NCBI GenBank assembly: GCA_045863235.1
Contig: BTUM01000037.1
Span: forward strand, 9,697 to 73,696
Length of the DNA: 64,000 bases
Origin: Candidatus Xenobia bacterium
GTDB taxonomy: Bacteria > Vulcanimicrobiota > Xenobia > Xenobiales > QWHO01
Reading direction: 5' to 3'
Shown here: positions 12,876 to 61,533 of the stretch, piece after piece
How the letters are laid out: every line of letters begins with the position of its first letter
How positions within the stretch are numbered: position 1 is the stretch's first letter
The notes under the pieces: generated by a model
What the model saw: the letters and a program-made list of their open reading frames with translations, nothing else
What the model was told of the DNA's origin: nothing
The model's database searches: none
Made by a program: the position numbers and the translations under genes

Positions 12876-13979
12876 TCAGAGTTTCTCCAGGGTCGCCCCC
12901 CGGTAGTAGTGGCGCAAGATGGCCTGGTAGCCCATGTGCTTCTCCCCCATCACCAGCGCCCCCCACTGGCATAAGCCCACCCCGTGGCCCCAGCCCCCGC
13001 CCTGAAAGTGCAGGCTGACCGGCCTGCCGTTTTGCTCCTTGACACTCATCTTGCAGCGGGTGCTGCGCAGCTCGCGGTAGCCCAGGATGCGTCGAAAATC
13101 CTGGCTCTTCTCGCGATACTCATGCCCCTGATCGTCCTTGACGGTGATGAAGTTCATCCGGCCTGACGGATCGTGGCCGCTGACCACCACCGAGGTGATG
13201 GTCCCCAGAGGCTTGCCATCGGCGGCAAAGCGCTTGCGCACCGTCTCGATGGGGAACGAGCGGCTCCAGTGCGAGCCGGCCGTTCCGGCGCAGTAAGGGT
13301 CGGGAACGCCCTTGATGAAGGGCACCTTGGGACCGAAGACGGGCTCGGAGTCGGAGGTGTGCCCGCCGCAGTTGGAGCTGTAGTAGGCTTTCAGGACGCG
13401 GCCGTCAGCCCCCTTGAGCACCTGACCCCGGGTGTCGTCGAGCGCGCCGCGCGAGGAGAACGACTCGCCGTCCAGGCCTGCGTAGACCTGGTCCTGGTCG
13501 GTGGCCACCAGGTCGTACTCGCTGTCGCGCGGGTCGCCGAGCAGGTAGACGGCGTAGGTGCGGGCCGCCACCGCCAGGGCGCGCTGGGTGGGTCCGGGCC
13601 AGTCAGCGGGGATCTCGCCCCCCACCACCCCGGCCAGGTAATCCTCGAGGTTGAGGACGTTGACCGCCACCAGCTTGCCCTCGCGCTCGAAGACGCGCAG
13701 GTAGCCTCGATAGCCGCGCCCGTTCCAGTAGAAGACGCCCGAGGCGGGCACGAACATGACGTCCTTTTCCGGAAAGCCCGGACGGAAGGTCACCTGTCCC
13801 TGGCCTTTGCGCAGCACCTGGGCGCCGGCGGTGGACTTGAGGGTGTAAGCATCCGACTCGACCGTGCAACTCGAGCCCTTCTCCTGCAGAGCGATCCGCA
13901 CCCGAGTCTGGGCCAGCGTGAGCTGACTGAGCAAAAGGAACAGCACCAACGTCAAAGGGCAACAATTCTTTAAAGCCAA
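12876..13979 (-). CDS. SpoIID/LytB domain lytic transglycosylase-like protein
   Basis: LEDYLAGVVGGE, AVAARTYA, DQVYAG, GWGHGVGLCQWGA, ILRHYY; signal peptide; TTG start uncertain. Confidence 0.88.
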   Translation of the reverse strand: MALKNCCPLTLVLFLLLSQLTLAQTRVRIALQEKGSSCTVESDAYTLKSTAGAQVLRKGQGQVTFRPGFPEKDVMFVPASGVFYWNGRGYRGYLRVFEREGKLVAVNVLNLEDYLAGVVGGEIPADWPGPTQRALAVAARTYAVYLLGDPRDSEYDLVATDQDQVYAGLDGESFSSRGALDDTRGQVLKGADGRVLKAYYSSNCGGHTSDSEPVFGPKVPFIKGVPDPYCAGTAGSHWSRSFPIETVRKRFAADGKPLGTITSVVVSGHDPSGRMNFITVKDDQGHEYREKSQDFRRILGYRELRSTRCKMSVKEQNGRPVSLHFQGGGWGHGVGLCQWGALVMGEKHMGYQAILRHYYRGATLEKL

Positions 13980-14001
13980 TTTCAGGGCTCCGAGGTAGAT
14001 T
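13968..14001 (+). promoter_or_regulatory. YTTMAG direct-repeat promoter
   Basis: CTTTAAA-GCCA-ATTTCAG-N10-TAGATT. Confidence 0.6.
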
Positions 14002-14013
14002 AAGGTCGATACC

Positions 14014-15930
14014 ATGCAAAATCTGACCGGCGGCATTACGGGAAAGTTCCTCGGTTCTCCTACCTTCGAGGAGGCCAGGCGCAAGCTGCGCGAGGCTGGG
14101 CAGCGCGAGGAAGCGCGCGGCCACGAGCTCGATGCGCGCGGCCGCGACCGCGTCGAGCAGGGCTCTCAGGATGCCGAGCAGGCCGCCGAGGACAGGCAGC
14201 AGGCGCTGAACGACCGGGCCGCCGCCCAGAAGCAGTGGAAGAAGGCCGAAAAACTCCAGGCCAGCTCGCTCAAGAAGATTGCCGATGGGATGGGCCTCAT
14301 CGGTCTGGCCGCAACCCTGCAGGCAGCCGCCCAGGCCCGCATCAATGAAGGGTTGAGCCAGCAGCAGCAGGCAGGCCAGCTCAAGGATAAAGGTCTCAAG
14401 GACGTCTCCAACGGACTCGCTCGCCAGGAGAAGGCCGAGCAGGGCCAGCAAGCCCAGGTCGAGCGACTGCAGCAGGCCTTTGCCGGCGAGGCTCAGGCCG
14501 AGGCTCTGAAAGACGAGGGGCGCGCCGGCGTGGGCCAGGGGCTGCGCCAGGAGGCTCAGGCCGAGCGTTTGCAGCAGAGCGGAGTCGAGACTCTCGCCTC
14601 TGGTCTGGCCGAGCAGCAGGCGGCCGAGCAGATCAAGGACGCCGGCCGGGAGAAGATCGGACGGGGCATCGACCAGCGTAACCTGGGCGGGGTCTACCTC
14701 GAGCAGGCCGCCCTGGGCCACCAGCAGGCCAGCCAGTTGCAGGGAGAAGCCGGTGCCAAGCGCACCCGGGCTCAAGCTCTGGAGATCCTGGCTCAGGCCG
14801 CCCAGCAGCGGGCCCAGCAGGCTTTGCAGCAAGTGCAGGCCCTGGTGCAGCAGGTAGCGCGCTTGACTCAGGAATCGACGCAGGCCAGCGGAGCCGCCGC
14901 CACGCTCGAGTCGGAGGGCCAGCACTTGAGCAGCCAGTCGCGCTGCTGGGGCCAGCGGGGCCAGCAGAACATCGCTCACGGGCGCTATCTGCAGCAGTGC
15001 CCCTTCCAGTATTGCGCCGGCCTGGAGCTCGAGCGCCAGGGCTTCGCCGAACTCAACTACGCCAACCAGCTGTGGGCCCAGGCCCAGGCCAAGCAGGGCC
15101 AGGCCAGCCAGCAGCGCCAGCTGTCCGAGGCCAGGCACGCCGAGGCTGAGCAGACTCGCTTTCGGGCGGCAGCCCTGGCCGGTCAGGCCTCGGGCGACTT
15201 TGCCCGGGCCAACCAGCAGCGCCAGGAAGCCGGGGGCCTGGTGCAGGCGGCCGCGGCCCAGGAGTTGCGGGCCGGCGAGATCTCCCTGCAAGCTCACCAG
15301 CTTCAGCAGCAGGGGCTGGGGCTGCGCGAGCAGGGCCAGCAGCTGATCGATGCCGGGCGCACCGAGGTGGCCACCGGTCAGGCCCGCGAAACAGCCGCTC
15401 AGGGCCAGATGACCCGGGGGCTGGGTCAGTTCGACCAGGGCCGGGCCGACGAGCAGCAGGCCCGCAATACCGAGTTGGACGGGCTGGGCAAGATCCAGCA
15501 GGGCTTCACCCAGGAAGCTCCCTTCCGGGCCGAGGAGCGGGACGCCCTCAAGGAGTTCCGCGCCTGGCGAGCCAAAGAGAAGACGGCCCACAGTCGCCAA
15601 CAGATGGGCCTGGGCAAGCTCGAGCAGGGCCTGGAGCAGTCCCAAGCTGGTCGCCAGGAGGGCGACGCCGGAGTGGCCGATTTCCGCGAGGGACAGAAAG
15701 TCGAGCGGCGAGGCGCCTCCAAGGTGGAGGCCGGTCAGGAGAAGCTCACTCAGGCCCGCTCTGCCCTGGATCAGGCCCGCGCCCGGGCCGCTGCGGCCCA
15801 GGATGAGTTGCGCCGGGCCGAAGAGCTCGAGCGCCAGGCCCAGCGCGAGATCGAGCTGGGGCAGTCCGAGCAGGCTGCCGGCCAGGTCATCGCCGGCAAG
15901 GGGCGAGCCTACCAGCAAGCCGCCGGATAA
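14014..15930 (+). CDS. Gln/Ala/Gly-rich coiled-coil hairpin protein A (638 aa)
   Basis: Gly-heptad periodicity, 3 Pro, central QCPFQYC turn; paralogue of 17191-19059. Confidence 0.8.
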   Translation: MQNLTGGITGKFLGSPTFEEARRKLREAGQREEARGHELDARGRDRVEQGSQDAEQAAEDRQQALNDRAAAQKQWKKAEKLQASSLKKIADGMGLIGLAATLQAAAQARINEGLSQQQQAGQLKDKGLKDVSNGLARQEKAEQGQQAQVERLQQAFAGEAQAEALKDEGRAGVGQGLRQEAQAERLQQSGVETLASGLAEQQAAEQIKDAGREKIGRGIDQRNLGGVYLEQAALGHQQASQLQGEAGAKRTRAQALEILAQAAQQRAQQALQQVQALVQQVARLTQESTQASGAAATLESEGQHLSSQSRCWGQRGQQNIAHGRYLQQCPFQYCAGLELERQGFAELNYANQLWAQAQAKQGQASQQRQLSEARHAEAEQTRFRAAALAGQASGDFARANQQRQEAGGLVQAAAAQELRAGEISLQAHQLQQQGLGLREQGQQLIDAGRTEVATGQARETAAQGQMTRGLGQFDQGRADEQQARNTELDGLGKIQQGFTQEAPFRAEERDALKEFRAWRAKEKTAHSRQQMGLGKLEQGLEQSQAGRQEGDAGVADFREGQKVERRGASKVEAGQEKLTQARSALDQARARAAAAQDELRRAEELERQAQREIELGQSEQAAGQVIAGKGRAYQQAAG

Positions 15931-16005
15931 CTTCGCACGCCGTTGCAACTGACTTAAGGCGCCGCGCGTCAGAGGATCCCGCTCGGGGTTCTGGAAAGCC
16001 CGCCC

Positions 16006-17145: not shown

Positions 17146-17177
17146 AAAAGCCCACCGCTCGGGGCGGTGGGCTTTTT
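17145..17177. terminator. Bidirectional intrinsic terminator
   Basis: AAAAAGCCCACCGC-TCGGG-GCGGTGGGCTTTTT between convergent genes. Confidence 0.9.
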
Positions 17178-17190
17178 CCGAGGTCTACCC

Positions 17191-19113: not shown

Positions 19114-19169
19114 AGTATGGCATCACGAACTGAAACCATGCTTAAACGGGCTGTTGACAGGCTGTTAAC
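19114..19169 (-). promoter_or_regulatory. Four 11-bp-phased boxes plus -10
   Basis: GTTAACA-N4-GTCAACA-N4-GTTTAAG-N4-GTTTCAG-N10-CATACT. Confidence 0.7.
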
Positions 19170-20372: not shown

Positions 20373-20375
20373 TTC

Positions 20376-20612: not shown

Positions 20613-23600
20613 TTAGGTGCGCTCCATCACGCGCAGGAAAGCGTCGATCAACACCGGGTCGAACTGGGTCCCCGAGCCGTCGCGCAGCGTCTGCAGTGCA
20701 TTCTCGACACTGAACGGCTCCCCATCGGGGCCTCCGGCCAGGAGATCCTCGAAGTGGTCGGCCACGGCGATGATGCGCGAGGCCAGCGGGATGTCGCGCC
20801 CGGCCAGCCCATCGGGATAGCCGTCGCCGTCCCAGCGCTCATGGTGGCTGCGGATGATCGGTCCCAGGTGTTTCAGCGAGCCGATCTGGTTCATGATCTC
20901 CTCGCCGTAGATGGGGTGCTTCTTGAGCTCCTCCAACTCGGCGCTGGTCAGCTCGTCGGGCGGCTTGGCCAGGATCTCCTCGGGCACCTGAATCTTGCCC
21001 ACGTCGCGCAGGATGGTGGAAGCGTGCAGAGCGCGCAGGTTGAGCGGACCCTGCTCTTTGAGGAAGTCGGCCATCTCCTCGATCTTCTCGTCGGAGGCAC
21101 CTCCCAGAGCGATGCCCACCTGACCGATGTCGATCAGCATGGCGCCGTCTCGGATCTGCTTGCGGGTGCGGAAGTCGTTGATGCCCAGCTCGTCGGCCAT
21201 GGCCATGGCGTGCTGCATCACCTTCTCGGAGCGCTCGGTGGATTGCCCGCCCATCTTGAGCATCACGCCCAGGCTGTGCAGAGCAGCATCTTCGTCCAGG
21301 TCCTGGAGGTCGCCGAGCTCTTTCTCTTTGTTGGCCTTCTTCAGCAGGCTGGTGACGGCCGAGGCGGCGTGGCGGTTGGCGACCGACTCGAGCTGCACGG
21401 AATCCATCTCCGACGCTCCCAAGGTGGCTGCGCGATGGGTTTCCTGAGCCTCGGCCTCCTCGGCGCCCTCGGGCTGCATGGCCGCCATGATGGCTGCCAG
21501 TGCCGTATTGGTCGAATTCTGGGTCTGAGCCGGACCCCGACCCAGACCGTGGGCCGAGTGACGGTCGGCGCCGCGGTCATCGCCGCCCTGCCCCTGATCG
21601 CCCGAGCCAAAGCCAGACTCTTGTTGCTGGGACTGCTGGTTCGCCTGGGCGCCCTGAGCCGAAGCTTGCCGGACGGTGCCGGCCAGAGTCGGCGCGAGAC
21701 GATTGGCGGCCCCGGTGGTGGGCTCGGAGTGTTTGTCAAAGCGAGCGTCCTCGGATCCGAATGCCTGGCGCTCGTTTCGCTCGGCGGCCCGCCACTGGGT
21801 CAGGGTCTCCTGACGCAGATCCTGGGTGGGCTCGCGTCGACGCTCGATGGGCGAGATGGGCAGGATCCCGTCCTGCTGCGAGTCCAAAGCCATATCCTCG
21901 GAGGAGGCTGCAGCCGCCTCGCGCACATCGGAAGAGGTGCTGCTGGCTTGAGTGGTCACGCGCTGCGGGGTGGGTCGCAACCCCAGTTGGATGGCCGAGG
22001 TGCCGGCCTCGGCGGGCGCCTGGGTTCGCTCGCTGGCCAGCTCGCGCTCCACCGCTGCGGCCGCCGGCTGAGAGGCAGCTTGGATCGCCTGCGGGGCCAG
22101 CGGGCCGGCCAGGTTGGGACGCACGGGCGCAGGGGGCAGAGTGGGCGTGGCGGGAGCCTCGGCCAACGGCTCTCGGGCTGTCGGGGCCGTGGAAGCCCGC
22201 GCGGTCTCCGGCTCGGGAGCCGAAGGCGCCGGAGGGGCAGTGGGAAGCGTGGTCGAGCGCCGCTGGGCGGCGGCCACCGCCGGCGGACCCTCGGGCGGCC
22301 CCACCGGCGCGGTCATGGCCGGGCGCACCTCGGCGGCCGCCGGGCGATAGGCCTCGCTGGCCGGTCCAGCCGGGGCGCCCAACGGGAGCGAAGTGCCGGG
22401 CGCCGTTCGGGGCCGCTCGCCGGCGAAGGCAGCACTGGTTCCAGATGGACTCACGGAACGACCGGGCCCTTCGGAACGAGGAGAGCCCTCGCTGCCCCGA
22501 GGGGCGCCCGGGGCCGCGCTCTCGCCCGTGCGGGCGGTCTCGACCGCTGAGACCCGCTGGGGGTCGGTGCGACTGGTCTCGCTGGTGGCCTGCACGGCCA
22601 CCGAGGTGCTCCGGCCGGCGTCCTCGCCGCGCCGGGCAGGCTCGGCCGCGCTGCCCTCGTTACGGGGAGCTGTGTTGGCGCGGGCCGGCTCACCGGTTAC
22701 GCTGGCCCGTCTTTCGGTTTCTTGACCGCTCGGAGGAGGGGCGGCAGCGCGGGCAGGCTCTTCGGCGGTCGCTCCGCGACGGCCTTCGGTCGGTCTGGAG
22801 GGCTCACCGGACTGCTCGGACCGGTTCTCGGCACGTGCTTCCGCGCGTGCTTCGCTGCGCGGCGCATCGACCCGGGACGGTTCGGAGGCGTGCGATTCCC
22901 CACGAGTCTCGGAGCGAGCCTCGCGGTTCTCGCCTCGCACCTCGACTCGGGCTTCACCTCTGGCTTCGGAGCGTGCCTCAGCTCGTGCCTCGGCCCGGGC
23001 TGGCTCGACCTCACGGGCGTCGCTGCGCTGTGCGTCCGCCGCGCGGCTGGCCTCTTCCACTCGGCGAGGTTCACCACTGTTCTCTCGACGAGTCTCGGCG
23101 GCAGGCGCCGGGGGCTCATTGCGCGGGGCCTCCGCCTGGCGGACCTGCTCGCTGCGCTGAGGCTGTCCCTCGCTTCGTGGCCCTTCGGACGCTCGGACCG
23201 GCTCTGCCTCGGAGCGGGCGGGCTCGTTGCGCGGAGCCTCGGCCTGCCGGGCGACCTCGTTACGCTGCCCCTCGGAGCGGGCCGGCTCGTTGCGCTGGCC
23301 CTCGGTCGGACGGGCCGGCTCACCCTCGGCGCGGGCTGGCTCGTTGCGTGGAGCCTCGGCCGGGCGGGCGGGCTCATTGCGTTGGCCTTCGGCGGGACGG
23401 GCCGGCTCGGTGGCACGGGTCTGCTCCCCACGTGGTGCCTCAGCTTCAGACCGGGCCGCCCGGGTCTCGGGCTGGTTGTTGCTGGCTGGCGCCTCAGTTG
23501 GGCGCGGTCGCTCATCACCACGGTTAGCGGGCGGCTGGGCCGGGGCCGGACGCTCCTCGCCCGTGCGTCCGGTCGTTTCCACCGTGGTCGTCATGCGCTC

Positions 23601-25916
23601 CCCGGTGGGGCTCTGGACGGTCGTGGTGGTGCGCTCGGTTCCGCCTCCCTCGGAGGTCTCCGACACGATGCGCTCGCCGGTCGGCAATTCAGTGGTCTCG
23701 CGCCGGGTCACATTCCGGTTCTCCCCCGAGCGCGGCTCGGGCGTGCCGGGTCGATTCTCGTTCTGATTTTGATTCGGGTTGCGATTGGGCGGCGCGGGCG
23801 CGGCCGCGCGCGGCTCGGTTTCGCCGGGCTTGCCTTCTACGGTCGTGGTGATGCGCTCGCCGGTGGCCGTGGTCACGGTCGTGGTGGTGCGCTCGTTGCC
23901 TCCCTCGACTCGGGCCGTCTCGCTGGTGATGGTCTCGCCGGTAGGCAGCTCGGTGGTCTCGCGGCGGGTGACGTTTTCGGCCCGGGGCGCTTCGGTGCGA
24001 GCAGGCTCGGGCGCGGGAGGCCGATTCTGGTTGTTTTGATTGGGGTTGGGCAAGGTGGCCCGAGGCTCGGTCTCGCCGGGCTTTCCTTCCACGGTGGTGG
24101 TGATGCGCTCGCCAGTGGCCGTGGTGATGGTGGTGGTGGTGCGCTCGTTGCCCCCTTCGACCCGGGCCGTCTCGCTGGTGATGGTTTCGCCGGTAGGCAG
24201 CTCGGTGGTCTCGCGGCGGGTGACGTTCTCGGCCCGGGGCGCTTCGGTGCGGGCAGGCTCGGGCGCGGGAGGCCGATTCTGGTTGTTTTGATTGGGGTTG
24301 GGCAAGGTGGCCCGAGGCTCGGTCTCGCCGGGCTTTCCTTCCACGGTGGTGGTGATGCGCTCGCCGGTGGCCGTGGTGATGGTGGTGGTGGTGCGCTCGT
24401 TGCCCCCCTCGCCCCGGGAGGTCTCGCTGGTGATGGTCTCGCCCGTGGGCAGCTCGGTCGTCTCACGGCGGGTGACGTTGCGGTTCTCCTCGACCCGCGC
24501 AGCCGGCTGCGGCTCGGGGGTCCGGGCAGTCTGCTGCTGTTGCGGCAGTGGAGCCGGGCGGGCCTCTTCCGAAGGCTTGCCGACGGTCTGGGTGGTGGTG
24601 ACGATCTTCTCGCCGGTCGGCAGGGTGATCGTCTCGGTGCGCGTGTTGCCTTTGGCTTCTTCCGCTTTGGGGGGCGGCGCAGGAGCTTCGACCTTCTCGA
24701 CCCGGGTGGTGGTCGTCGTCGTGCGCGTCTCGCCGGTGGGCGACTCGACCGTGGTGGTGGTCCTGGTCTCCTCGGGCTTTTTCTCGTCGGCCCGGGGAGC
24801 GAGCAAGGCTGGCCTCGGACTCTCGGGCGGCTTGCTCTCGGTTGTGGTGGTGACCTTCTCACCGGTGGCCAGAGTGACCGACTCGGTGCGGTTGGCCGGC
24901 TTCTTCTCGCCTTCTGCTTTAGGCTGCTCGGGTTTCTGCTCGTCCTTGCGCTCGACCCGGGTCTCGGTCCTGGTGCTCGTTTCCCCGTTGGCGTCCGTAA
25001 CCGTCTCGGTGGTCTCGGTCACGACACGCTCTTCCTCCGGCGCGGCCGCCTCGCGACGGTTCTCAGCCGTCTTGGCACGAGCGGTCTTCTCCTCGCTGGA
25101 GCTGCTGGTGGCCGAGGCCGCCTTCTCCGTCTGCGGCTTCGTCGGGGCCACCCCGGGTCGGACCGTTTCCGTGGAGCTGGCCTCCGACCGGATCACCCTG
25201 CCCTTCTTGTCCTTCTCGGCCGTGGTGACTTCCACGCTGGGCAATTGGCCCGGTTTCTCAACGATGGCCACGGTGACCTCGGAAGTCTTGCCATCGGGAC
25301 CCTTGACCTCGACCTTGGTGGCCGTCTGGGTGGTGGTGGTGCCATCGGCTTCCACGACCTGCGTCTTGCTCTGGGTCGTGGCCGCCCCTCCGGGCGCGTC
25401 GGTGGAGCCGGTCTTCACTTCCTCCTTGACCATCTGGCGTCCATCGTCGGTGGTGACTTCCGTGCGCGAGCTGGAGGAACCGTCACTGTTCTTGGTGGTT
25501 TCCGAGCGGGCGCTCTGGACCGTGGTCTGGCCGGTCATCAGAGACTTCGTGCTCTCGATCCTGACCGAAGCCGGTGGCAGCTTGTCCTTGTCCTTCTCCT
25601 TGGGCGCCTTCGTGGGATCGATCCCGAACATGCGAAGGACCGTATCCTCTTTCTTCTTGGCCTCTTTCTGCTCTTTCTTGGACAGCGGCTTTTCGGTTTT
25701 GCTGCCCGGGAAGGCTCCCTCGAGCGAGGTGATGGAGGTCTTGATGACGTCCTGCAGCTCGTTGAGCGACTTCTCGACGCTACCCCCCTTGCTCGACGTC
25801 GACGAGGTCGTCGTCGAGGTCACGGTGGTGGTCGTGTTCTTGATGTCCTTCGAAGGCTGCGCCAAAGGGGAATCCTCCCAAAACGTCGTTCCGATAGCGT
25901 ACCACTCGATTGCCAA
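20613..25916 (-). CDS. Giant repeat/low-complexity protein with degenerate C-terminal HD-GYP domain (1767 aa)
   Basis: KHPIYG, HHERWDGDGYPDGL, RIIAVAD; HD dyad replaced; start uncertain. Confidence 0.85.
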   Translation of the reverse strand: MAIEWYAIGTTFWEDSPLAQPSKDIKNTTTTVTSTTTSSTSSKGGSVEKSLNELQDVIKTSITSLEGAFPGSKTEKPLSKKEQKEAKKKEDTVLRMFGIDPTKAPKEKDKDKLPPASVRIESTKSLMTGQTTVQSARSETTKNSDGSSSSRTEVTTDDGRQMVKEEVKTGSTDAPGGAATTQSKTQVVEADGTTTTQTATKVEVKGPDGKTSEVTVAIVEKPGQLPSVEVTTAEKDKKGRVIRSEASSTETVRPGVAPTKPQTEKAASATSSSSEEKTARAKTAENRREAAAPEEERVVTETTETVTDANGETSTRTETRVERKDEQKPEQPKAEGEKKPANRTESVTLATGEKVTTTTESKPPESPRPALLAPRADEKKPEETRTTTTVESPTGETRTTTTTTRVEKVEAPAPPPKAEEAKGNTRTETITLPTGEKIVTTTQTVGKPSEEARPAPLPQQQQTARTPEPQPAARVEENRNVTRRETTELPTGETITSETSRGEGGNERTTTTITTATGERITTTVEGKPGETEPRATLPNPNQNNQNRPPAPEPARTEAPRAENVTRRETTELPTGETITSETARVEGGNERTTTTITTATGERITTTVEGKPGETEPRATLPNPNQNNQNRPPAPEPARTEAPRAENVTRRETTELPTGETITSETARVEGGNERTTTTVTTATGERITTTVEGKPGETEPRAAAPAPPNRNPNQNQNENRPGTPEPRSGENRNVTRRETTELPTGERIVSETSEGGGTERTTTTVQSPTGERMTTTVETTGRTGEERPAPAQPPANRGDERPRPTEAPASNNQPETRAARSEAEAPRGEQTRATEPARPAEGQRNEPARPAEAPRNEPARAEGEPARPTEGQRNEPARSEGQRNEVARQAEAPRNEPARSEAEPVRASEGPRSEGQPQRSEQVRQAEAPRNEPPAPAAETRRENSGEPRRVEEASRAADAQRSDAREVEPARAEARAEARSEARGEARVEVRGENREARSETRGESHASEPSRVDAPRSEARAEARAENRSEQSGEPSRPTEGRRGATAEEPARAAAPPPSGQETERRASVTGEPARANTAPRNEGSAAEPARRGEDAGRSTSVAVQATSETSRTDPQRVSAVETARTGESAAPGAPRGSEGSPRSEGPGRSVSPSGTSAAFAGERPRTAPGTSLPLGAPAGPASEAYRPAAAEVRPAMTAPVGPPEGPPAVAAAQRRSTTLPTAPPAPSAPEPETARASTAPTAREPLAEAPATPTLPPAPVRPNLAGPLAPQAIQAASQPAAAAVERELASERTQAPAEAGTSAIQLGLRPTPQRVTTQASSTSSDVREAAAASSEDMALDSQQDGILPISPIERRREPTQDLRQETLTQWRAAERNERQAFGSEDARFDKHSEPTTGAANRLAPTLAGTVRQASAQGAQANQQSQQQESGFGSGDQGQGGDDRGADRHSAHGLGRGPAQTQNSTNTALAAIMAAMQPEGAEEAEAQETHRAATLGASEMDSVQLESVANRHAASAVTSLLKKANKEKELGDLQDLDEDAALHSLGVMLKMGGQSTERSEKVMQHAMAMADELGINDFRTRKQIRDGAMLIDIGQVGIALGGASDEKIEEMADFLKEQGPLNLRALHASTILRDVGKIQVPEEILAKPPDELTSAELEELKKHPIYGEEIMNQIGSLKHLGPIIRSHHERWDGDGYPDGLAGRDIPLASRIIAVADHFEDLLAGGPDGEPFSVENALQTLRDGSGTQFDPVLIDAFLRVMERT
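23540..24480 (-). repeat. Intragenic tandem repeat, 252-bp (84-aa) unit, about 4 copies
   Basis: NVTRRETTELPTGE anchors at about 24472, 24220, 23968 and 23707. Confidence 0.9.
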
Positions 25917-25933
25917 GCGAGCGTGAAGAGGGT

Positions 25934-25971
25934 GGTAAACTTTGTTAAAAGTTTGCTGCCAGGTTGTTAAA
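25934..25971 (-). promoter_or_regulatory. TAACA-type 11-bp-phased boxes
   Basis: TTTAACA-N4-GGCAGCA-N4-TTTAACA upstream of the HD-GYP gene. Confidence 0.5.
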
Positions 25972-29158: not shown

Positions 29159-29192
29159 AGTCTAAGAGGGTGACTTGAAAAAGGTCTGAAGT
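29159..29192 (-). promoter_or_regulatory. YTTMAG direct-repeat promoter
   Basis: ACTTCAG-ACCT-TTTTCAA-N10-TAGACT. Confidence 0.6.
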
Positions 29193-29213: not shown

Positions 29214-31448
29214 TCAAAGCTCGATGTCGTGGGCCGAGTTGCCCCGCTCGCCAAGCTGCACTTCGGTCCGGAAGCGGTGCTGCAAGACCAGGCGCAGGTA
29301 CTCGCGAACCCGGCCCGTGCGTGCGCCGGAGGGCAGGATCCTCAAGGCAAGCCCCAGGTCGGCCGGCGTCATCGAGCCCAGGGGCCGGTTCAGGAGGGGC
29401 GTGAGCTGGGCCAGCTCGAGCTTGAACTGGTAGCCCTCCAACCTGCGCCAGCAGACGATCAGCCGGCCATCAGGCACAAACCAGCAATCGAGAACCTGTC
29501 GGTTGGCCTGGCGGTTTGCCACGGTGCCCACCAGCTCGAACGTACGGGCGTTTCTCAGCTGCGATTCCCCCCAACCCACCGTGGCCAGCAGCGAGCCATC
29601 GCCGGAGAAGCAGAAGGCGCTGGCTGCCAGCTCGGCCAGCAGGCGGCCGGTGGCGAGCTCGAGGACCGTCAGTGCCCTCTCTCCCTGACAGAGCAAGCTG
29701 GCCCCATCGGGGCTGAAGGACACAGAGGAGAGCTCCCCGGTTTCAGGGTCGCACACGTGCCACTTTGCCCCGGACCAGCAGATCAATCGCCGGAGCCCGG
29801 CGCGATTGGCCTGGCCGACCGCCAGCTGGTTGCCCTCGGCCGAGATGGCCAGCGCCTCCACGAAAGGCTCGGGGAACGGGCAATCCAGGGCCAGGGTGGA
29901 GCGCTCCAGCGAGGGCAGTCTGACGACCTCCACCCGGTCGGGACATCCCAGAGCGACCCGATCCCCCGCCTCAGAGATGGCCAGGCATCCCTCCACCTCG
30001 CGAAAGATCTCCCGGTCCGATCCGGTGGCCAGATCGAGCAATCGGACCGTGTTGCCGGCAGACCAGATGACCAGCCAGCCTGACCCGAATGCCAGCTGGC
30101 GGAACTTGCGCCCGGAACCGGATCGCTCGGCGCACTGCAGTTGGTAGAGCTGCTCCTTCTTGTCCAGATCCCAGACGATGACTGCGCCGTCTGCGCCCCC
30201 GCTGGCCAGGAGCCGACCTGCGGGATGGAAGGCGAGAGCGTCCAGACGTTCTATCGCCTCGGTCCAGAAGTCCCCGGTGCGGCCGACGCACTGCAACTCC
30301 CCGGCCAGGTGGCCGAACAGGGTGCTCTGCGAGCTGTGGGCGAGATCGGTCAGGGTCAGCGCGCAAGCAGGTCCCCGGTAGACCACCTGGCCGCTGGCCG
30401 GGTGCAGCTGCAAACGGTCGGTCGCTACCGAGAGCAAGATCTGCTCGCACTGCACCACCTCTTCGAGCAGAGCCGGATCGGGACACTGCAGGCGCAGAGC
30501 TCGGTAGAGATCGGCTTCGGCCGGCTGAGAGCGCAGCGAGTCCAGTTGGCGCAAAGCCCGGGCCGACCACAGCACGGGAGCCTCCAGCACCAGTTTCCAG
30601 AGCTCGTCGGGACGATCCCTGACCAGCTCGAGCAGGGTCTCCCAGCCAGCCCCGCCTGGCAACTTCATCGGCTGCAGCACGGCCCGGGCTAGCTCGCCCG
30701 AGCCCTGACGGCGCACCTGGGCACGGATGCGCCCGGCCAGGCCAACGGGAGCCCGGGAATAGGCCAGCGCCAGCAGGCGGTGATCGGGATCGAGCTCGCG
30801 CCACCGCTCCACCTGTCCGGTCACGAACAAGAAGACGGCGCGCTCCTCGGGCTCCTCGGGAAGGGCTCCGCTCTCCACCAAGAGTCCCAGGGCTGCTTCG
30901 GGGCAGTCGTCGCGCAGGCAGACCCTGGCCAGGCGCCCGCTCCACGCCGAGCCGGTGAGGATTCTCCTGGCCCGTTCTCCCTCGGGAGCCGGTCGGTCCA
31001 GGGACCCGGCCAGGAGCAGGCAGACGGCCACGAAATCCTCTTTCTCCAGGAAGTGCTCGCCTGAAGGGATGAAAAGGCAGGAGACCACCCGCACCTCCAG
31101 CCTGCGACCGCCAGGTCGGTCGCAGCCGGCCAGGAGCGCGACCAGGTCCTGGTCGCGAGTCTGAACGAAGAGCTCCCAGTAGTCGTTGAGAATCTCCTGG
31201 CTCAGGTAGCTGGAATCGAGTATCCGGGCTACGGCTCTGGCCCGGACGGCCCGACGAGCGGGATGGTTCTCGTCCACCAGACCCATGGCCACCTCTCGGG
31301 CCGCCCCAGCGTCGCCAAAGCAAGCCCGGATGAGGACATTCTGGTCGTGCAGCCAGCCGCGCAGTCGTTCGATCAGGGTGAGCGCATGCTTCCCCCCGGC
31401 ATAAGGGGGACCCTGCGCGGACGGCGAAGGCCCCCCGATGCACCCCAA
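29214..31448 (-). CDS. WD40 repeat protein with helical N-terminal region (start uncertain)
   Basis: LAFHPAGRLLASGGADGAVIVWD, VSFSPDG, FSGDGSLLAT. Confidence 0.8.
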   Translation of the reverse strand: MGCIGGPSPSAQGPPYAGGKHALTLIERLRGWLHDQNVLIRACFGDAGAAREVAMGLVDENHPARRAVRARAVARILDSSYLSQEILNDYWELFVQTRDQDLVALLAGCDRPGGRRLEVRVVSCLFIPSGEHFLEKEDFVAVCLLLAGSLDRPAPEGERARRILTGSAWSGRLARVCLRDDCPEAALGLLVESGALPEEPEERAVFLFVTGQVERWRELDPDHRLLALAYSRAPVGLAGRIRAQVRRQGSGELARAVLQPMKLPGGAGWETLLELVRDRPDELWKLVLEAPVLWSARALRQLDSLRSQPAEADLYRALRLQCPDPALLEEVVQCEQILLSVATDRLQLHPASGQVVYRGPACALTLTDLAHSSQSTLFGHLAGELQCVGRTGDFWTEAIERLDALAFHPAGRLLASGGADGAVIVWDLDKKEQLYQLQCAERSGSGRKFRQLAFGSGWLVIWSAGNTVRLLDLATGSDREIFREVEGCLAISEAGDRVALGCPDRVEVVRLPSLERSTLALDCPFPEPFVEALAISAEGNQLAVGQANRAGLRRLICWSGAKWHVCDPETGELSSVSFSPDGASLLCQGERALTVLELATGRLLAELAASAFCFSGDGSLLATVGWGESQLRNARTFELVGTVANRQANRQVLDCWFVPDGRLIVCWRRLEGYQFKLELAQLTPLLNRPLGSMTPADLGLALRILPSGARTGRVREYLRLVLQHRFRTEVQLGERGNSAHDIEL

Positions 31449-47627: not shown

Positions 47628-47661
47628 ATGATGGTCGGCGAGCCTTAAGGAATTCTGAAAC
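47628..47661 (-). promoter_or_regulatory. YTTMAG direct-repeat promoter
   Basis: GTTTCAG-AATT-CCTTAAG-N10-CATCAT. Confidence 0.6.
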
Positions 47662-47684: not shown

Positions 47685-47718
47685 GCTTCAGCTTCCTTTC
47701 AGCCTCTCCCTGCACACT
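47685..47718 (+). promoter_or_regulatory. YTTMAG direct-repeat promoter
   Basis: GCTTCAG-CTTC-CTTTCAG-N10-CACACT. Confidence 0.65.
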
Positions 47719-48225: not shown

Positions 48226-50055
48226 CTAGACCAGCAGGCGGTCGAGCTCCAGCTCGAAGACTGAGACCGGCTGGGAGAGTTTGAAGCCCTCCAGAACCTG
48301 CGGATGGATCTCGCCCATCATGCCCACCTCGTGGCGGGTCTGACCGCGGGTGGCAACCACCCGCGCTCCCCGGCCGGGAATGAAGTAAGGCTGCTCGGCC
48401 GGCTCCACCTCGAGCTTCCAGCCCAGCTCGTGCAACAGGGCCTGGCAGGTAGAGCGCATCTCTGAGTAGTCGACCCGCGGGCCTGTCGCTCCGGCGATCA
48501 CGCGGCCATGCTCGCGCGCTCCTGTGTCGGCCTCGACGCACAATCTGGAGACGCGGCCCACCTCGAAGAGGTGCTGGGGCATCTCGTGGTCGGTGTTGGC
48601 GCTGAATGTGTCCAGCAGGCCCGGCAAGAGCGAGGTGCGCACCAGGGTCTGCTCCACGCTGATGGGGTTCTCGATGACAACGTGGTCCTCGCGCCGCTCC
48701 AGGCCCAGCGCATCATACTGGGCCTCCTCGCTGCTCAAGATGAGGGTCAGGATCTCCAGGTAGCCCAGCCCCGCCAGGGCTCGCCGGCAGAGGGTGGCAC
48801 CTTTCTCGAAGGTTTGCTCCTCTCCCACCGTCAGGGTGGGCACCAGCGAGGGCACCAGGTTGTGGTAGCCGTAGGCGATGGCCACGTCCTCGATCAGGTC
48901 GATGGGATGCATGATATCGTTTCGGTAGGCCGGGACAGCCACCAGTAGCTTGCCGCCCTCTTTGGGCATGATCGAATGACCCATCCGGATCAGCAGGCGA
49001 GCGACCTCTTCCACGGCCAGCTCCACCCCGATGGTGCGGGCCGCCTCGGCCGAGTCCAGCTCGACCATCTGAGGCGAGAGGTCCGGGGTCGCCACCGAGC
49101 GATCGGGGTACAGGATGCTCACCTTCTCGAGCTGGGCGGCGCCATCGAGCTCGAGCAGGCTGGTTACCAGGATGTTGAGGGTCTTGTTGACGACCCGCTC
49201 CTCGGTGCCGGTCACGTCGATGAAGAAGTTGCGCGTCTGCACCGTGACCTTGGTGCCTTCGCTGTTGATGATGGGAGGCAGGCTGAGCACCTGGCCTTGC
49301 GAGTCGCACAAGAGCGGGTAGCGCTGGTGGTCCTTGAGAAGGTGGGCGTAGGCCCGACCCTTGGGATGCTCCTCGAGCACCTGGCGGGCGGTGATGGCCC
49401 GGTCTTGATAGCCCAGGGGCACAAACTTCTTTTCGTCGGGGCCGATGGGCCCATAGGTGAAGGCGGCCCCCTGCACCAGTCGATCCAGGTCGTAGACCCC
49501 GATGGAGGCGCGTTTGCGATCACGACCCAGAGCCCAGTGCAGGTTCTCCTGCAGCTTCATGATGACCTTGATGATGTCGTCGGACAGGGTGATGTCACGC
49601 ATCACGGCGCAAGCGATGCAGGGGCGGAAGCTTTCGGGCGAGCTCATGGCCGGATCGACGCTGACCTGGCAAGTGGGCGGACCCACCTCGTAGTTGAGGG
49701 TGCTGTCGCCCTCGCTCAGGTAGGCCCGCAGCACCCGGGCCAGGCCGCCAGGCTCGAACATATCCGGCCGCACGGCCAGGAGCTCCATGCGGATCACCTC
49801 GCTGGTGCCGGCTTCCTGGCGCGCCTCGGCGTTGGCCCGGAAATCGGCCCCGCAGCGATCGCACTCCACCGGGGGGTTCTCGGTCTCGGTGATCTCCATC
49901 AGGTTGCCGCACCGCTCGCAGCGAAAGCGGCGCAGGGTGGCGTAACCCTCCACATCGCAGCCCAGGTGCTGCAGGTGCTCCACCAGCTCGTCGCGGCTGA
50001 GCTGGGTGGAGATGCGCTCGAGCAGCATCTCCACCGGAATCCCGATTACCGGCAT
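48226..50055 (-). CDS. pheT: Phenylalanine--tRNA ligase beta, archaeal/eukaryal type
   Basis: RPDM, QENLH..LGRDRKRASIGVYD, LSLPPIINS, VPAYRNDIMHPIDLIED; no OB or anticodon domains. Confidence 0.93.
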   Translation of the reverse strand: MPVIGIPVEMLLERISTQLSRDELVEHLQHLGCDVEGYATLRRFRCERCGNLMEITETENPPVECDRCGADFRANAEARQEAGTSEVIRMELLAVRPDMFEPGGLARVLRAYLSEGDSTLNYEVGPPTCQVSVDPAMSSPESFRPCIACAVMRDITLSDDIIKVIMKLQENLHWALGRDRKRASIGVYDLDRLVQGAAFTYGPIGPDEKKFVPLGYQDRAITARQVLEEHPKGRAYAHLLKDHQRYPLLCDSQGQVLSLPPIINSEGTKVTVQTRNFFIDVTGTEERVVNKTLNILVTSLLELDGAAQLEKVSILYPDRSVATPDLSPQMVELDSAEAARTIGVELAVEEVARLLIRMGHSIMPKEGGKLLVAVPAYRNDIMHPIDLIEDVAIAYGYHNLVPSLVPTLTVGEEQTFEKGATLCRRALAGLGYLEILTLILSSEEAQYDALGLERREDHVVIENPISVEQTLVRTSLLPGLLDTFSANTDHEMPQHLFEVGRVSRLCVEADTGAREHGRVIAGATGPRVDYSEMRSTCQALLHELGWKLEVEPAEQPYFIPGRGARVVATRGQTRHEVGMMGEIHPQVLEGFKLSQPVSVFELELDRLLV

Positions 50056-51575
50056 AGCGGTTCCTCCTTGAGCCAGGCCAGGCGGGCGCGGTACAGCTCA
50101 CCGATGCTGCCCACCTCGTAGCGGAACATGGCCAGCCGCTCGAGCCCCAGGCCCCAGGCCAGCACGGGCGCTGTGCAACCGAGCGGGCGGGTCACCTCGG
50201 GGCGGAACATGCCGGCTCCCCCCATCTCGACCCAGTCCGACTTGCGCTCGCTCCAGACGAACACCTCCACACTGGGCTCGGTGTAGGGGAAGAAGGCCGG
50301 GCGGAACTGGAAGCGCTCGAAACCCATCTTCTGGTAGAAGGCCTGCAGCGTGCCCAACAGGTTCGAGAAGGAGGCCTTCTCGTCGATGATGATGCCGTCC
50401 ACCTGGTGGAAAACCGGCAGGTGCTTATAGTCCACCGTTTCGCGGCGGAACACCGGGCCCACGCAAAACACCTTGCGAGGCGAGGTGGGATTCTGGGCCA
50501 GGGCCCGGATGGTGCTGGCAGTGGTGTGGGTGCGCAAGACGGCCTTTTGAGCCAGGTCCTTGCTCCACACGTAGCGCCAACCGACCGAGCCGGTGTCGCC
50601 GCCGTCCTCGTGGGTCTTTCTCACCCGCTCCACCATCTCGGCGTCGGGCAGGTGGCAACTGCCCGGGCGAGCCACGTAGAAGGTGTCCTGCATATCGCGG
50701 GCGGGATGGTCCTGCGGCTGGAACAGGGCGTCGAAATCCCAGAAGCCAGACTCGACGTAGGAGCTGACCGTCTCACTGAAGCCCATCTCGAGAAAGACGC
50801 GGCGGGTCTGCTCGAAGACCCGCACCAGCGGGTGGGCCTTGCCGGGGCTGACCCGGGCTGCCTCCAGGCGCACGTCATAGGGGCGCAGCTCCACCGAACG
50901 CCATTCTCCCGTGCGCAGCATCTCGGGGGTCAGCTGGTTGACCTGCTTTCTGGCTTCGATCCCCTCCTCCACCAGCTTGCGACCGGCCGCCGTCAACTGG
51001 GCATAGCGGATCTTGCGTGGCTTCTCCTCCACGATGCCGGTGCGCCCCTCCAGCAAGGCCAGGGCGGCGGGCACATCCACCTCCTTCTTGGCCAGCTCGC
51101 GGTCGGAGGCTGCTTCGAGGTCGAACAGGGCCATCACCAGGATCTCATCCGGCCCCGGCTTGTCGCCGTTCTTAGGAGCCTTGGAGGCCAGCTTGAGCTG
51201 CTTACCGTCCTGCTCGGCCCAGCCTTTCTGCTTGAGCCAGCGCAGGGACTGGCCGACCTCGGTCTTGTCCAGACCGCTCAGCTCGGCGAGCTCGGGCAGC
51301 TCAGCCGGCTCACCTTTGGCGATCAGGGCCTGCAGGATGTGGCGCTCGGGCAACAAGCCCTCCCTGAGAGCTTTGCCCTTCTTGCCAAGCTTGAGGTCGA
51401 GGTAGACCTCCTCGGTCACCTCGATGAGGCCCTCCTCTGAGCGCTTGAGGCAGGTGGCCGTCACCTGGCTCTGGTCCAGGCCCAGCTCGGCGGCCAGGTC
51501 GAGCACCGACACGGGCTTGCTCCTGGCGGCCAGGCCGGTCAGCACGTGGTAGTCGACTTCCGGTAGGCTATGCAT
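50046..51575 (-). CDS. pheS: Phenylalanine--tRNA ligase alpha, archaeal/eukaryal type
   Basis: Long N-terminal wHTH region, FDALFQPQDHPARDMQDTF, LRTHTT, FPYTEPS, AWGLGLER. Confidence 0.95.
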   Translation of the reverse strand: MHSLPEVDYHVLTGLAARSKPVSVLDLAAELGLDQSQVTATCLKRSEEGLIEVTEEVYLDLKLGKKGKALREGLLPERHILQALIAKGEPAELPELAELSGLDKTEVGQSLRWLKQKGWAEQDGKQLKLASKAPKNGDKPGPDEILVMALFDLEAASDRELAKKEVDVPAALALLEGRTGIVEEKPRKIRYAQLTAAGRKLVEEGIEARKQVNQLTPEMLRTGEWRSVELRPYDVRLEAARVSPGKAHPLVRVFEQTRRVFLEMGFSETVSSYVESGFWDFDALFQPQDHPARDMQDTFYVARPGSCHLPDAEMVERVRKTHEDGGDTGSVGWRYVWSKDLAQKAVLRTHTTASTIRALAQNPTSPRKVFCVGPVFRRETVDYKHLPVFHQVDGIIIDEKASFSNLLGTLQAFYQKMGFERFQFRPAFFPYTEPSVEVFVWSERKSDWVEMGGAGMFRPEVTRPLGCTAPVLAWGLGLERLAMFRYEVGSIGELYRARLAWLKEEPLCR

Positions 51576-56916: not shown

Positions 56917-56971
56917 GAGGAGCGCAGCCGGAACCCCCTTGCTTCTAGCAGGCTGATGCAGCCCCTGAGCC

Positions 56972-57955: not shown

Positions 57956-57969
57956 GCGGGCAGTTCCCC

Positions 57970-58236: not shown

Positions 58237-58239
58237 GGG

Positions 58240-58937: not shown

Positions 58938-58940
58938 GCT

Positions 58941-59285: not shown

Positions 59286-60511
59286 GGTGCGGTTGCCCCG
59301 GGCGCATAGTGGCTCTGGACATACTCTTCCACCATCTCCAGAAAGCGTTCGGCGATATCATCGCCTTTCAGGGTGGCAACCTTCTGACCATCGGCATAGA
59401 CCGGGGCGGAAGGGGTTTCCCCCGTGCCGGGCAGAGAGAGGCCGATGTGGGCCCCCTTGGCTTCGCCCGGGCCATTGACCACGCACCCCATGACGGCCAC
59501 CTTCATCTGCTCCACGCCCTCGTAGCCGGCCGCTTTCCACTCGGCCATGCGGCGCTTGAGATGGCCTTCCACCTCCAGGGCCAGCTCCTGAAAGAGGGTA
59601 CTGGTGGTGCGACCGCACCCAGGGCAGGCGGTGACGCGCGGGGTGAAGTCGCGCAGACCGATATTTTGCAAAATCTCGCGACAGATCTCGACCTCGCGAG
59701 TGCGCGTTTCGCCTGGAGCGGGAGTGAGCGAGACGCGGATGGTGTCGCCGATGCCATCCTGCAGCAGCAGGCCCAGGGCAAGGCTTGAAGAGACGATCCC
59801 CTTGAGTCCCATGCCAGCCTCGGTGAGGCCCACATGCAGGGCGTAGCGGCAGCGTTTGCTGAGCTCGCGGTAGACGTGGACCACCTCTTGCACCTCGCTG
59901 ACTTTGGCCGACAAGACGATCTTGTTGGCCGGCAGCCCATACTCCTCAGCCATCGCCGCCGAGCGCAGCGCGCTCTCGAGCATGGCCTCGAGAAAAACTT
60001 GCTTGGCCCCCTTGGGCGACCCGGCGGCCAGATCGGCCTCGATCAGCTCTTGCAGGAGAGCCTGATCCAGCGACCCGCCGTTGACTCCGATCCGCACGGC
60101 CTTACCGTGCTCTACGGCAGCTTCGACCATCGTTTTGAAGTTGGTGTCGTGCTGCTGGCCAACCCCCACGTTGCCAGGATTGATGCGATACTTGTCCAGC
60201 GAGCGTGCGCATTCGGGGTGGCGCACCAGCAGACGATGCCCGTTGTAGTGAAAGTCTCCAATCAGAGGCACCTGGCAGCCTGCGGCGCGTACCCGCTTCA
60301 CGATCTCAGGGGTCGCCTCGGCATTCTCGCTGTCCTTGACCGTGAAGCGCACCAGCTCGGAGCCGGCCTCGGCCAGCTCGAGCACCTGTTTGACAGTAGA
60401 CTCGACGTCGGAGGTGTCGGTGTTGGTCATGCTCTGGACGCGCACGGGATTGGCGCCTCCCATGGTCAGCTCACCGATCTTGACCTCATGCGATTTTCGC
60501 AGCTTTATCAC
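59279..60511 (-). CDS. ispG: HMBPP synthase IspG
   Basis: [57 protein letters not shown]. Confidence 0.96.
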
Positions 60512-60566
60512 GAATGATTCACCCGGCTATCCTTGAGTTTTCTTCCGCATCCAGACGGCCGGACTG

Positions 60567-61493
60567 TCAGTTCTCTGCGGGTTCAGGCGCTCCTGCCTGC
60601 AGTTGACCCTGGACGACGCGGTAGATCTGGCGGGTTCCGTCGCTCGAGCGCCAGGCCAGCATATCAAAGCTCTGGCCGTCCTCACAGCGGACCACCTCAG
60701 CTCGCTCCAGGTCGAGTGGTCGACCGGCCTCGAGTCGGGGCCATTCGGTCAGGCTGACGAAGTGGGCGGCTCCCTCCCCCACCACCCTGGCCTGCAGTTC
60801 CCCGTCGACCAGCACGGCAGTGGCCTCATCCACCCCCAGGCCGCGCGAGCCCGGCTCGCGGCTGAGAAAGACCAGCAGCCGTCCCAGTCGCTCGCGTTCG
60901 GAGAAATGGCTGTCGGTGATGACCTGATCCAGCGCCTCGGCCTCCAAAAAGCGGGGGGCCAGGGTCACCTTGGGGCCGAGCGGGTCGGCCAGAGCCTCTT
61001 GCGAGGTGACGGTATCCCGAGCGGCCGAGAAGAACGGGTCGCCCAGCAGAGCCAGCCCGGCGCTGGTTCCCCCTACAGGAACTCCGCGGTCGAAGGCTTG
61101 CTGCACCGCATCTTGCAGCGGAGTGCCCTCAAAAAGCTGAAGATACTGGTATTGATCGCCGCCGGCGAAGAAGATCGCTTCCGCGTTCCGGACACGCTCC
61201 ACCACGAAGGGGTCGAACGAGCCCTCGCGCTCCTTCATGCAGAAGGTCTCCACCGAATCGACCTTGCGTCCGTCACTGAGGGGCAGATTGGCCAGGTAGT
61301 CGTTGTAGCCGTCCGCTCCCGAGGCGCGGATCACGACGATGTCGCCCGCGTCGCTCCGGTCGAGCAGCCAGGTCATGGCCTGGCCCTGGTCGGCTCCCCC
61401 GCCTGCCAGCACCAGCCCCGGACGGGGTCGGGCGGCGGTGTTGGCGGCGTTCCCGGTCAGATAGTAGTCATAGGCTGGCTGGGAGATGTGCAC
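60567..61493 (-). CDS. Cyanophycinase-like S51 peptidase
   Basis: AGGDQ..Y, GGTSAG, DSHF.ER.RLGRL, GVDEATA; GTG 6 nt after the -10. Confidence 0.85.
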   Translation of the reverse strand: MHISQPAYDYYLTGNAANTAARPRPGLVLAGGGADQGQAMTWLLDRSDAGDIVVIRASGADGYNDYLANLPLSDGRKVDSVETFCMKEREGSFDPFVVERVRNAEAIFFAGGDQYQYLQLFEGTPLQDAVQQAFDRGVPVGGTSAGLALLGDPFFSAARDTVTSQEALADPLGPKVTLAPRFLEAEALDQVITDSHFSERERLGRLLVFLSREPGSRGLGVDEATAVLVDGELQARVVGEGAAHFVSLTEWPRLEAGRPLDLERAEVVRCEDGQSFDMLAWRSSDGTRQIYRVVQGQLQAGAPEPAEN

Positions 61494-61499
61494 CTGTCC

Positions 61500-61533
61500 A
61501 GGGTACCCGGCCACCCCGAAAGAACCCTGAAGG
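61500..61533 (-). promoter_or_regulatory. YTTMAG direct-repeat promoter (leaderless)
   Basis: CCTTCAG-GGTT-CTTTCGG-N10-TACCCT-N6-GTG. Confidence 0.62.

Follow-up and report, generated by a model that had tools for sequence, protein, structure and literature searches.

The 64,000-nucleotide stretch of a Candidatus Xenobia bacterium genome analysed here (contig BTUM01000037.1, positions 9,697 to 73,696; hereafter the window) carries the same promoter-like element, which we call box A, ahead of six genes, and raises the question of what box A controls and which protein reads it. We analysed the whole genome to which the window belongs (8.36 Mb in 166 contigs, 66% GC, 97.6% complete; the window lies on contig C37), with 7220 genes called by our own hexamer model and start codons that are approximate. 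Box A is a real promoter box of known architecture. It probably works with a second repeat, box B, and the two boxes together would regulate several hundred proteins that make up a type III secretome.

The element had been written nYTTMAG-N4-nYTTMAG in the preliminary description, which is the same as YTTMAG-N5-YTTMAG with an 11-bp period (in full, YTTMAG-N5-YTTMAG-N10-YAnnnT), and the six sites listed there were all recovered in place and on the expected strands, with 0-1 mismatch each. The consensus is TTTCAG-N5-TTTCAG-N10-TAnnnT, T-rich at the end of the 5-bp spacer. Within the window, seven matches with at most 2 mismatches were found against 0.55 expected, a number reached in 0/100 shuffles; the seventh (29253-29285, 2 mismatches, below 9 bits) was excluded from the count. 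Genome-wide comparison with shuffled controls, the check that had been proposed, placed the spaced motif far over background. Exact hexamer pairs occurred 97 times at a gap of 5 bp versus 1-13 times at each other gap from 0 to 29, and YAnnnT lay exactly 10 bp beyond the pair in 60/97 cases, as against 0-6 at other distances. A refined, iterated matrix identified 422 sites of at least 14 bits, compared with 7-37 for five column-shuffled matrices, and 353 of the 422 were intergenic, in sense orientation and less than 200 nt from a gene (controls, 0-5). For five of the six window sites, box A was kept in congeneric orthologues, with 205/210 matches at 15 key bases and 203/252 in the spacer; the 149-residue gene had no orthologue in the relatives' loci compared. 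N-terminal frames were open in 13/14 orthologues read. Three other identities for box A were rejected: a housekeeping promoter, since the transfer RNA (tRNA) genes of this genome use TTGAC-N18-TAnnnT, unlike box A; a sigma-28 promoter, since the -10 element is TAnnnT and FlgM was not found; and a repeat or mobile element, since the flanks differ from site to site.

An in-frame start codon lies 4-10 nt past the -10 element at 260/422 matrix sites. Among 371 sites, in-frame starts peaked at +6 (124) and +7 (63), followed by +9 (38) and +8 (21), with most other offsets represented 1-10 times. Base +6 is a purine in 72/86 leadered promoters which, taken with the +6/+7 peaks, is the pattern expected of a real start site. 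The two genes for which leaderless transcripts had been suggested, encoding a PlsC-type acyltransferase (+7) and a cyanophycinase-like peptidase (+6), retain that assignment. RNA-library data from four runs, present as contigs only and at flat low depth, allowed no start site to be read; one contig starts within the 47686 box and upstream of both predicted starts, an indication that the RNA library contained DNA.

We defined as targets the 353 genes with a site of at least 14 bits and a start within 70 nt (69/422 sites were excluded) and, as controls, 343 other leaderless-type genes picked by the same start rule. The six window genes had been called unrelated, which they are not, because a common N-terminal tag and the lack of Sec signals unite the targets. 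Target proteins begin M-[QINLR]-[IV], followed by ~25 residues rich in Ser, Pro, Thr and Ala and often by D-x-V-x-L-S near residues 20-40. A hydrophobic (Sec-type) start, judged by a hydropathy proxy rather than a signal-peptide predictor, was present in 13/353 targets versus 85/343 controls and 1520/6754 other genes, and Ser, Pro, Ala or Thr made up at least half of residues 4-25 in 116/353 targets versus 31/343 controls. Type III substrates of Pseudomonas syringae follow three rules: a Ser-rich start, Pro or an aliphatic residue as the third or fourth residue, and no acidic residue in positions 1-12 (PMC3338616). At least two of them held in 208/353 targets versus 101/343 controls, with every rule enriched. 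Relative to an untagged paralogue, an N-terminal extension of at least 20 residues was found in 24/35 targets versus 34/311 controls; a clear case is a thioredoxin reductase with 49 extra N-terminal residues, while several others depend on one paralogue whose start was probably called short.

A tag classifier trained on this genome only, without any flagellar label, gave a cross-validated area under the curve of 0.80-0.90 at the N-terminus versus 0.56-0.66 at residue 100. Applied to the true-flagellum proteins of a relative (G013), it scored FlgM at 0.90, FlgD at 0.91 and FlgL at 0.85, and it gave 0.91 to the FlgJ-like protein of the present genome, all within the top 2-3.5%. Box A targets of five relatives scored above 0.8 in 15/25 cases and had a hydrophobic start in 0/25. 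Judged by these sequence features, the tag of the targets looks like a type III export signal.

We ran Pfam on 136/353 targets, drawn from the densest stretches, and found a family in 45/136 and none in 91/136. The assigned families include 11 PQQ-type propellers, a lytic transglycosylase, NlpC/P60, a C92 amidase and two endonuclease I proteins, along with peptidases C1, C11, C26, M48 and S51, acyltransferases, a glycerophosphodiesterase, a lipid desaturase and an HD domain. A cluster of PQQ propellers has 21 members among box A targets, and another cluster contains 20 long targets (mostly 700-1500 residues), mostly without Pfam assignment; C111:5031, C22:94229 and C43:10639 are examples from these regulon families. 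A same-strand gene follows closely in 61/353 targets versus 2256/6867 other genes, making the targets mostly monocistronic. For this widespread, uncultured group, the box serves as a sequence key to about 350 candidate exported proteins per genome. As separate observations, one target (L250:3282-4940, minus strand) has a weak ATLF-type metalloprotease match, below the cut-off, and another (L229:9826-11379, plus strand) a RUS1/UVB-sensitivity domain.

The second repeat, box B, reads G[TG]T[AC]ACA-N4-G[GT]YMAC, again with an 11-bp repeat, and lies 21-22 bp before the -10 element or, at machine operon heads, 32-33 bp before it, one or two helical turns farther than box A. About 250 box B sites occur genome-wide. 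Box B precedes 86/311 genes that have a high tag score and no box A, versus 17/1200 low-scoring genes and 4 on the opposite strand. It scores 28.8-30.9 bits at four operon heads of the export-machine genes described below: the flgB, hook-type and C74 operons, and a 473-residue gene after the pilins. Of the pilin genes, one copy has box B and another box A (23.3 bits). Box B was found in 26/41 relatives and at the same machine operons in G013 and G007; neither box was found in 72 kb around the true flagellar genes of G013. Other abundant upstream dyads were also noted, namely AGG[AG]-N16/17-CGAA (about 100, resembling sites of extracytoplasmic-function sigma factors), ACAA-N2-TGTT, and the palindromes TTGAAT-N-ATTCAA and ATGA-N-TCAT.

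The box leads to a flagellum-derived export machine that annotation would class as an incomplete flagellum. Its genes form two clusters, on contigs C27 and C74 (listed in the table below). Flagellin, MotB, FlgI, FlgD and FlgM were not found in this genome (97.6% complete), and all were found in G013. The core proteins FlhA, FlhB, FliP and FliI pass flagellar equivalog cut-offs and fail those for Sct proteins. FHIPEP matches are present in 41/41 genomes and flagellin in 8/41, the same 8 that have a second full FlhA; the two FlhA proteins of G013 are 83% and 43% identical to that of the present genome. The export cluster is syntenic in G013, G006 and G007, and in G013 is separate from the true flagellar cluster. 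Stand-alone FlhA cytoplasmic-domain proteins were noted in addition (C80:28012, C3:26973, C1:377631, C106:14866 and C107:13658), with 5-19 FHIPEP matches per genome in most large genomes and 2-3 in family f3; these proteins could be cargo-sorting adaptors. In G007, C21:48924-63757 encodes a further full FlhA (62% identical to that of the present genome) and an FlhA-like fusion with box B; no flagellin was found in the G007 genome, nor a pilin-profile match in its genus.

Behind the export cluster, at C27:54348-57476, lie three near-identical genes for an 81-residue HrpA-like protein, each with a different promoter, together with genes for a 473-residue protein with a pilin-like C-terminal pattern and a conserved 104-residue neighbour. 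Three more full 81-residue pilin-like copies occur elsewhere in the genome. The family has 199 homologues and is present in 43/121 genomes of the phylum, with none in families f14 and f18. A weak Pfam HrpA match was obtained for 5/58 members (best E 4e-4), and the Atlas placed the protein at 0.90-0.91 to clusters with 23-24% HrpA members. The structural model is one long helix (predicted template-modelling score 0.41), with no match in PDB.

If these parts belong together, a head-to-tail activator dimer would cover the -35 region and recruit the housekeeping sigma factor at each box, and about 60% of box A transcripts would be leaderless. The apparatus, some pilins and about 100 cargo genes would depend on box B, and a single pilin copy and most of the cargo on box A; the tag would route the cargo proteins via FlhA/FlhB/FliPQR, the rod and an HrpA-like pilus.

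Several findings weigh against this. The box B matrix was trained on the same 311 tagged genes, inflating the 86/311 count; 59% of targets score above 0.8 with the classifier, all three P. syringae rules are satisfied in 46/353 targets only, and the D-x-V-x-L-S motif is present in 10-20% of targets, depending on definition. The cluster showed neither a secretin nor an L/P ring (the secretin scan covered the cluster proteins of C27 and of C74, which is cut by a contig edge), which leaves outer-membrane passage unexplained. No candidate regulator clade shows consistent autoregulation, and in another class of the phylum box A precedes Sec or lipoprotein genes.

Further findings of this kind lend themselves to another account, in which the box marks a life-stage programme, the tag serves a different machine (type IV pilus or type II secretion system, Tad, or contractile), degradation or a disordered linker, and the type III cluster is simply co-regulated. 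Under that account one would note that the tag is mostly compositional: FliC, FliD, FlgE, FliK and the rod proteins score low (0.05-0.5) and some shadow open reading frames score high (0.84-0.88), so the classifier partly reads low-complexity composition. The small-genome genus g3 keeps the export machine with little or no enrichment of either box, five genomes of genus g4 have many boxes and no recognisable pilin by profile match, and several targets look like ordinary enzymes or transporters (an MFS transporter, an HrpB helicase, a DNA-alkylation repair enzyme and a glycosyltransferase). A search for CesT-family chaperones yielded none, but it was blank for its controls too. We nevertheless regard this account as unlikely, given box B at all four machine operon heads and box A at a pilin gene, and known type III substrates with non-structural N-termini in the top 2-3.5% of the classifier; cargo of a type II system, moreover, needs Sec or Tat signals, and Sec-type starts are depleted six-fold in targets.

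As to what reads the box, the OmpR/PhoB-class geometry suggested at the outset was borne out: a hexamer repeat with an 11-bp period, 10 bp from the -10 element, as in the CiaR box. By this analogy, box A is likely bound by an activator belonging to the OmpR/PhoB family. The CiaR box of streptococci is TTTAAG-N5-TTTAAG, 10 bp before the -10 element, and occurs at 15 promoters (PMC3091779). Box A shares its hexamer length, period, 10-bp gap, TTT start and final G, but differs in that TTTCAG dominates, sites number about 350-420 and about 60% of the genes are leaderless; the targets here, unlike the CiaR regulon, are tagged and non-Sec, and CiaR-like binding is only predicted. The KdpE site of Escherichia coli, TTTATA-N5-TTTACA, consists of 6-bp repeats 5 bp apart (PMC3264566) and likewise has TTT-led repeats and a T-rich 5-bp spacer; KdpE, however, controls one operon, whereas the KdpE-like candidate here is not beside kdp genes.

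The genome encodes 13 canonical OmpR proteins, of which three clades are common to the box-rich genomes examined. The protein at C4:32828 has the recognition helix closest to that of CiaR (VVEVHISSLRQKL in this regulator versus VVEVYVSKVRKKL in CiaR), and its clade, with a DNA-binding domain only 52-69% conserved, occurs in each of the eight Xenobia genomes examined. The KdpE-like regulator, paired with a PAS kinase (C14:96565-98819), is present in 8/8 genomes, is better conserved (70-80%), and is also kept in g3 genomes without box enrichment. By our estimate, C4:32828 is the tentative first choice as the box A activator; the KdpE-like protein at C14:98130 and the one at C22:57818 are doubtful candidates of equal standing, and some other protein is slightly likelier than either of these two. 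In the autoregulation survey, a site of at least 14 bits was found at 7/74 regulator loci in six genomes, spread over several clades. An apparent excess of sites near the C4:32828 clade vanished in an even comparison of the 74 loci, and phyletic pattern failed as a guide as well: the weakly enriched G030 has four OmpR proteins and lacks the C22:57818 clade, and g3 genomes keep the three OmpR clades without box enrichment. The comparison of regulators in other classes covered 30/63 loci in seven genomes. TGTCAC-N5-TGTCAC-N10-TAGACT, presumably a Pho-box-like site, lies at C6:56420-56452 (minus strand), directly before an OmpR/kinase pair, and in G045 a regulator with a helix of the CiaR-like group has a TTTCAT-N5-TTTCAT-N10 box directly before it. 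A near-invariant orphan OmpR-family regulator (C4:205130-205825; 80-95% conserved) shows 95-97% identity across three families, falling to 73-84% in other classes, and is probably a core regulator of the large-genome branches of the phylum. That it might read box B is a guess from the specificity of PhoB/WalR-type helices.

The regulon could stand as described and the reader of the box still be a small repeat-binding protein, a winged helix of SARP type or an alternative sigma factor. Sigma region-2 matches number 20 in the genome, FliA-like ones among them beside the second flg cluster, and Trans_reg_C gave 12 matches, all weak and in long proteins; no autoregulation was found; and in the two candidates with CiaR-like helices the DNA-binding domain shows only 51-69% conservation. 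Against this stand the housekeeping TAnnnT -10 element, a box A spacing that equals that of the CiaR box, and the two hexamer-repeat boxes just described before an OmpR gene and the G045 regulator, and we consider such a reader quite improbable. That the motif is a general promoter of the lineage or a dispersed repeat, with the protein features an artefact of start-codon choice, has in its favour that box A marks 343/4361 genes with an upstream gap of at least 50 nt and that target starts were picked with the promoter in hand, but it is largely refuted already and very improbable, as the tRNA promoters differ, flanks and spacers are not common between sites, key bases outlast spacers in orthologues whose frames are open, and leaderless controls under the same start rule have no tag.

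What the two-box type III secretome would be for is suggested by its content. Among the cargo recognised so far are cell-wall hydrolases, endonucleases, proteases and lipid enzymes, together with cytoplasmic enzymes in tagged copies. Such a set is compatible with attack on, or life with, another cell, probably bacterial, for which we see slightly less than an even chance. A bolder version, which we put forward as a tentative proposal and do not favour, is that Xenobia turned the flagellar basal body into a pilus-tipped injector, in a step separate from the known injectisomes, for about 500-650 tagged proteins (353 with box A and 311 more), with two 11-bp-repeat activators acting in tiers, machine first and then cargo, to kill or digest bacterial prey. 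Predation has been proposed from genomes for a marine family of the class Xenobia, with no weapon named in the text available, and the TXSScan table of that paper lists a type III system as putative, without a decision (PMC9259500).

The closest regulatory parallel is in Legionella pneumophila, where PmrA and CpxR control about 40 and 30 effector genes, respectively, and CpxR also controls apparatus genes (PMC6989116), from a total of more than 330 effectors (PMC13555631). As there, two winged-helix regulators would act on a scattered effector set and one of them also on the apparatus; in contrast, the system is type IV there and type III-like here, about 350 plus at least 100 genes are involved here, and control was shown by experiment there and is predicted here. 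Non-flagellar type III secretion systems (Hrp pilus, and the needle-less systems of Myxococcales; PMC3459982) share with the Xenobia machine a clustered, flagellum-derived export core without motility parts, a small helical HrpA-like subunit, and N-terminal export signals (predicted here). The Xenobia machine, however, keeps FliF, FliG, FliM, FliE and FlgB/C/F/G/J, its core proteins are of flagellar rather than Sct type, and there is no secretin in the cluster, differences that suggest a separate re-use of a flagellum. Because the rod genes are kept and a secretin is missing from the cluster, it works at most like a non-flagellar type III system and is not a member of that group as PMC3459982 defines it; nor, with flagellin, MotB, FlgD, FlgI and FlgM not found, does it come under the definition of a motile flagellum. 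If the two-box reading is true, this would be a second route from flagellum to protein delivery, and the secretome would be among the largest under one promoter box; at the 500-650 proteins of the bolder version it would exceed the more than 330 L. pneumophila effectors. A literature search, covering few subscription journals, found no description of the motif, regulon or machine, and the available parts of ProFinder (10.64898/2026.09.23.753901) and PMC11484240 make no mention of the motif or of this secretion system. What the roughly 350 targets of box A point to, a very large type III-like secretome with a flagellum-derived export machine, is apparently undescribed.

Exact matches to box A were found in 34/41 related genomes, with the reversed pattern present 0-1 times per genome. 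The large genomes of f1, f2 and f4, all families, have 3-61 exact sites each, and those of family f3 have 0-3; with two mismatches allowed, counts in genus g3 equal or come close to the control (at most 26 versus 9) and genera g8 and g9 are weakly enriched (4-15 versus 0). Across the phylum, at least one site with one mismatch was found in 133/251 genomes, mostly 1-3 per genome, with controls near zero; three unpublished genomes enter this tally and no other result. Among 20 loci of the other class, box A stands before hydrophobic Sec or lipoprotein starts in 12/16 read, and none of the proteins read carries the Xenobia tag. Since the box is of low copy phylum-wide and stands without the tag in the other class, this type of box is old, and what belongs to Xenobia is its spread to hundreds of genes. 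The large, lineage-specific programme envisaged in the preliminary description is therefore large and kept across the order, but not strictly lineage-specific. In G217, of the other class, box A heads a cupredoxin/SCO-like gene run with a response regulator and kinase at its end.

Features of the window and of the export clusters. Coordinates without a contig prefix are window positions.
Feature	Location	Strand	Remarks
SecA-family protein	5398..8784	-	behind strong box B; ~190-residue Pro/Ala/Ser-rich N-terminal extension
Box B promoter before SecA-family gene	8817..8861	-	29.7 bits
Box B promoter (repeat pair, N22, -10)	10178..10222	+	23.5 bits; absent from the preliminary description
Subtilase S8 and coupled alpha/beta-hydrolase genes	10264..12848	+	behind box B; tagged N-termini, scores 0.83 and 0.85
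Box A promoter before rod A	13969..14001	+	23.6 bits; partial box B overlaps its upstream side
Rod A, 638 residues, coiled-coil-like	14014..15930	+	box A target
Rod B, 622 residues	17191..19059	-	Ser/Thr/Ala-rich N-terminus, no family; target of boxes A and B
Box A promoter before rod B	19114..19146	-	22.3 bits
Box B repeat pair GTTAAC/GTCAAC	19153..19169	-	directly upstream of box A of rod B; 27.1 bits (gap 33)
PQQ-type beta-propeller, 424 residues	27843..29117	-	start corrected, giving a tagged N-terminus; D-x-F-x-P at residue 27
Box A promoter before PQQ propeller	29159..29191	-	26.3 bits
PlsC-type acyltransferase, 382 residues	46472..47620	-	leaderless (+7); one of six regulon paralogues
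Box A promoter before PlsC	47628..47660	-	25.0 bits; back to back with the 47686 site
Box A promoter before 149-residue gene	47686..47718	+	29.5 bits
Hypothetical protein, 149 residues	47750..48199	+	leadered (+31); four paralogues, all regulon members
Peptidase S51, cyanophycinase-like, 308 residues	60567..61493	-	leaderless (+6); no Sec-type hydrophobic start
Box A promoter before peptidase S51	61500..61532	-	26.9 bits
Export cluster, part 1	C27:60720-79219		FlgB, FlgC, FliE, FliF, two FliG-type, FliH, FliI, FliJ
Export cluster, part 2	C27:60720-79219		lytic transglycosylase, FliK, short FlgE/F/G-type, FliM, two FliN
Export cluster, part 3	C27:60720-79219		FliO, FliP, two FliQ, FliR, FlhB, FlhA
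Second flg cluster	C74:3-3983		FliK-like, FlhB-C protein, FlgF, FlgG, FlgJ rod-binding, FliA-like sigma cut by contig end

Within the window, the rod B promoter reads as a composite of box B and box A. For rod A, no Pfam or NCBIfam family, no membrane segment and no informative Atlas match was found. The SecA-family gene is possibly a tagged second copy of a housekeeping enzyme. No box A site of at least 9 bits lies before argS, pheS, ispG or the 459-residue gene at 36703 (previously named rtcB), as had been observed. Two further neighbourhoods were noted. A 1750-residue HD-domain protein with a Thr/Ser-rich start and internal repeats is encoded at 20613-25916 (minus strand), with four loose box-B-like repeats upstream of its gene (25920-25971). 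The genes at 48226-51575 (minus strand) encode PheRS, with a 509-residue alpha subunit bearing N-terminal winged helices and a 609-residue beta subunit, an architecture that we take to be of archaeal type.

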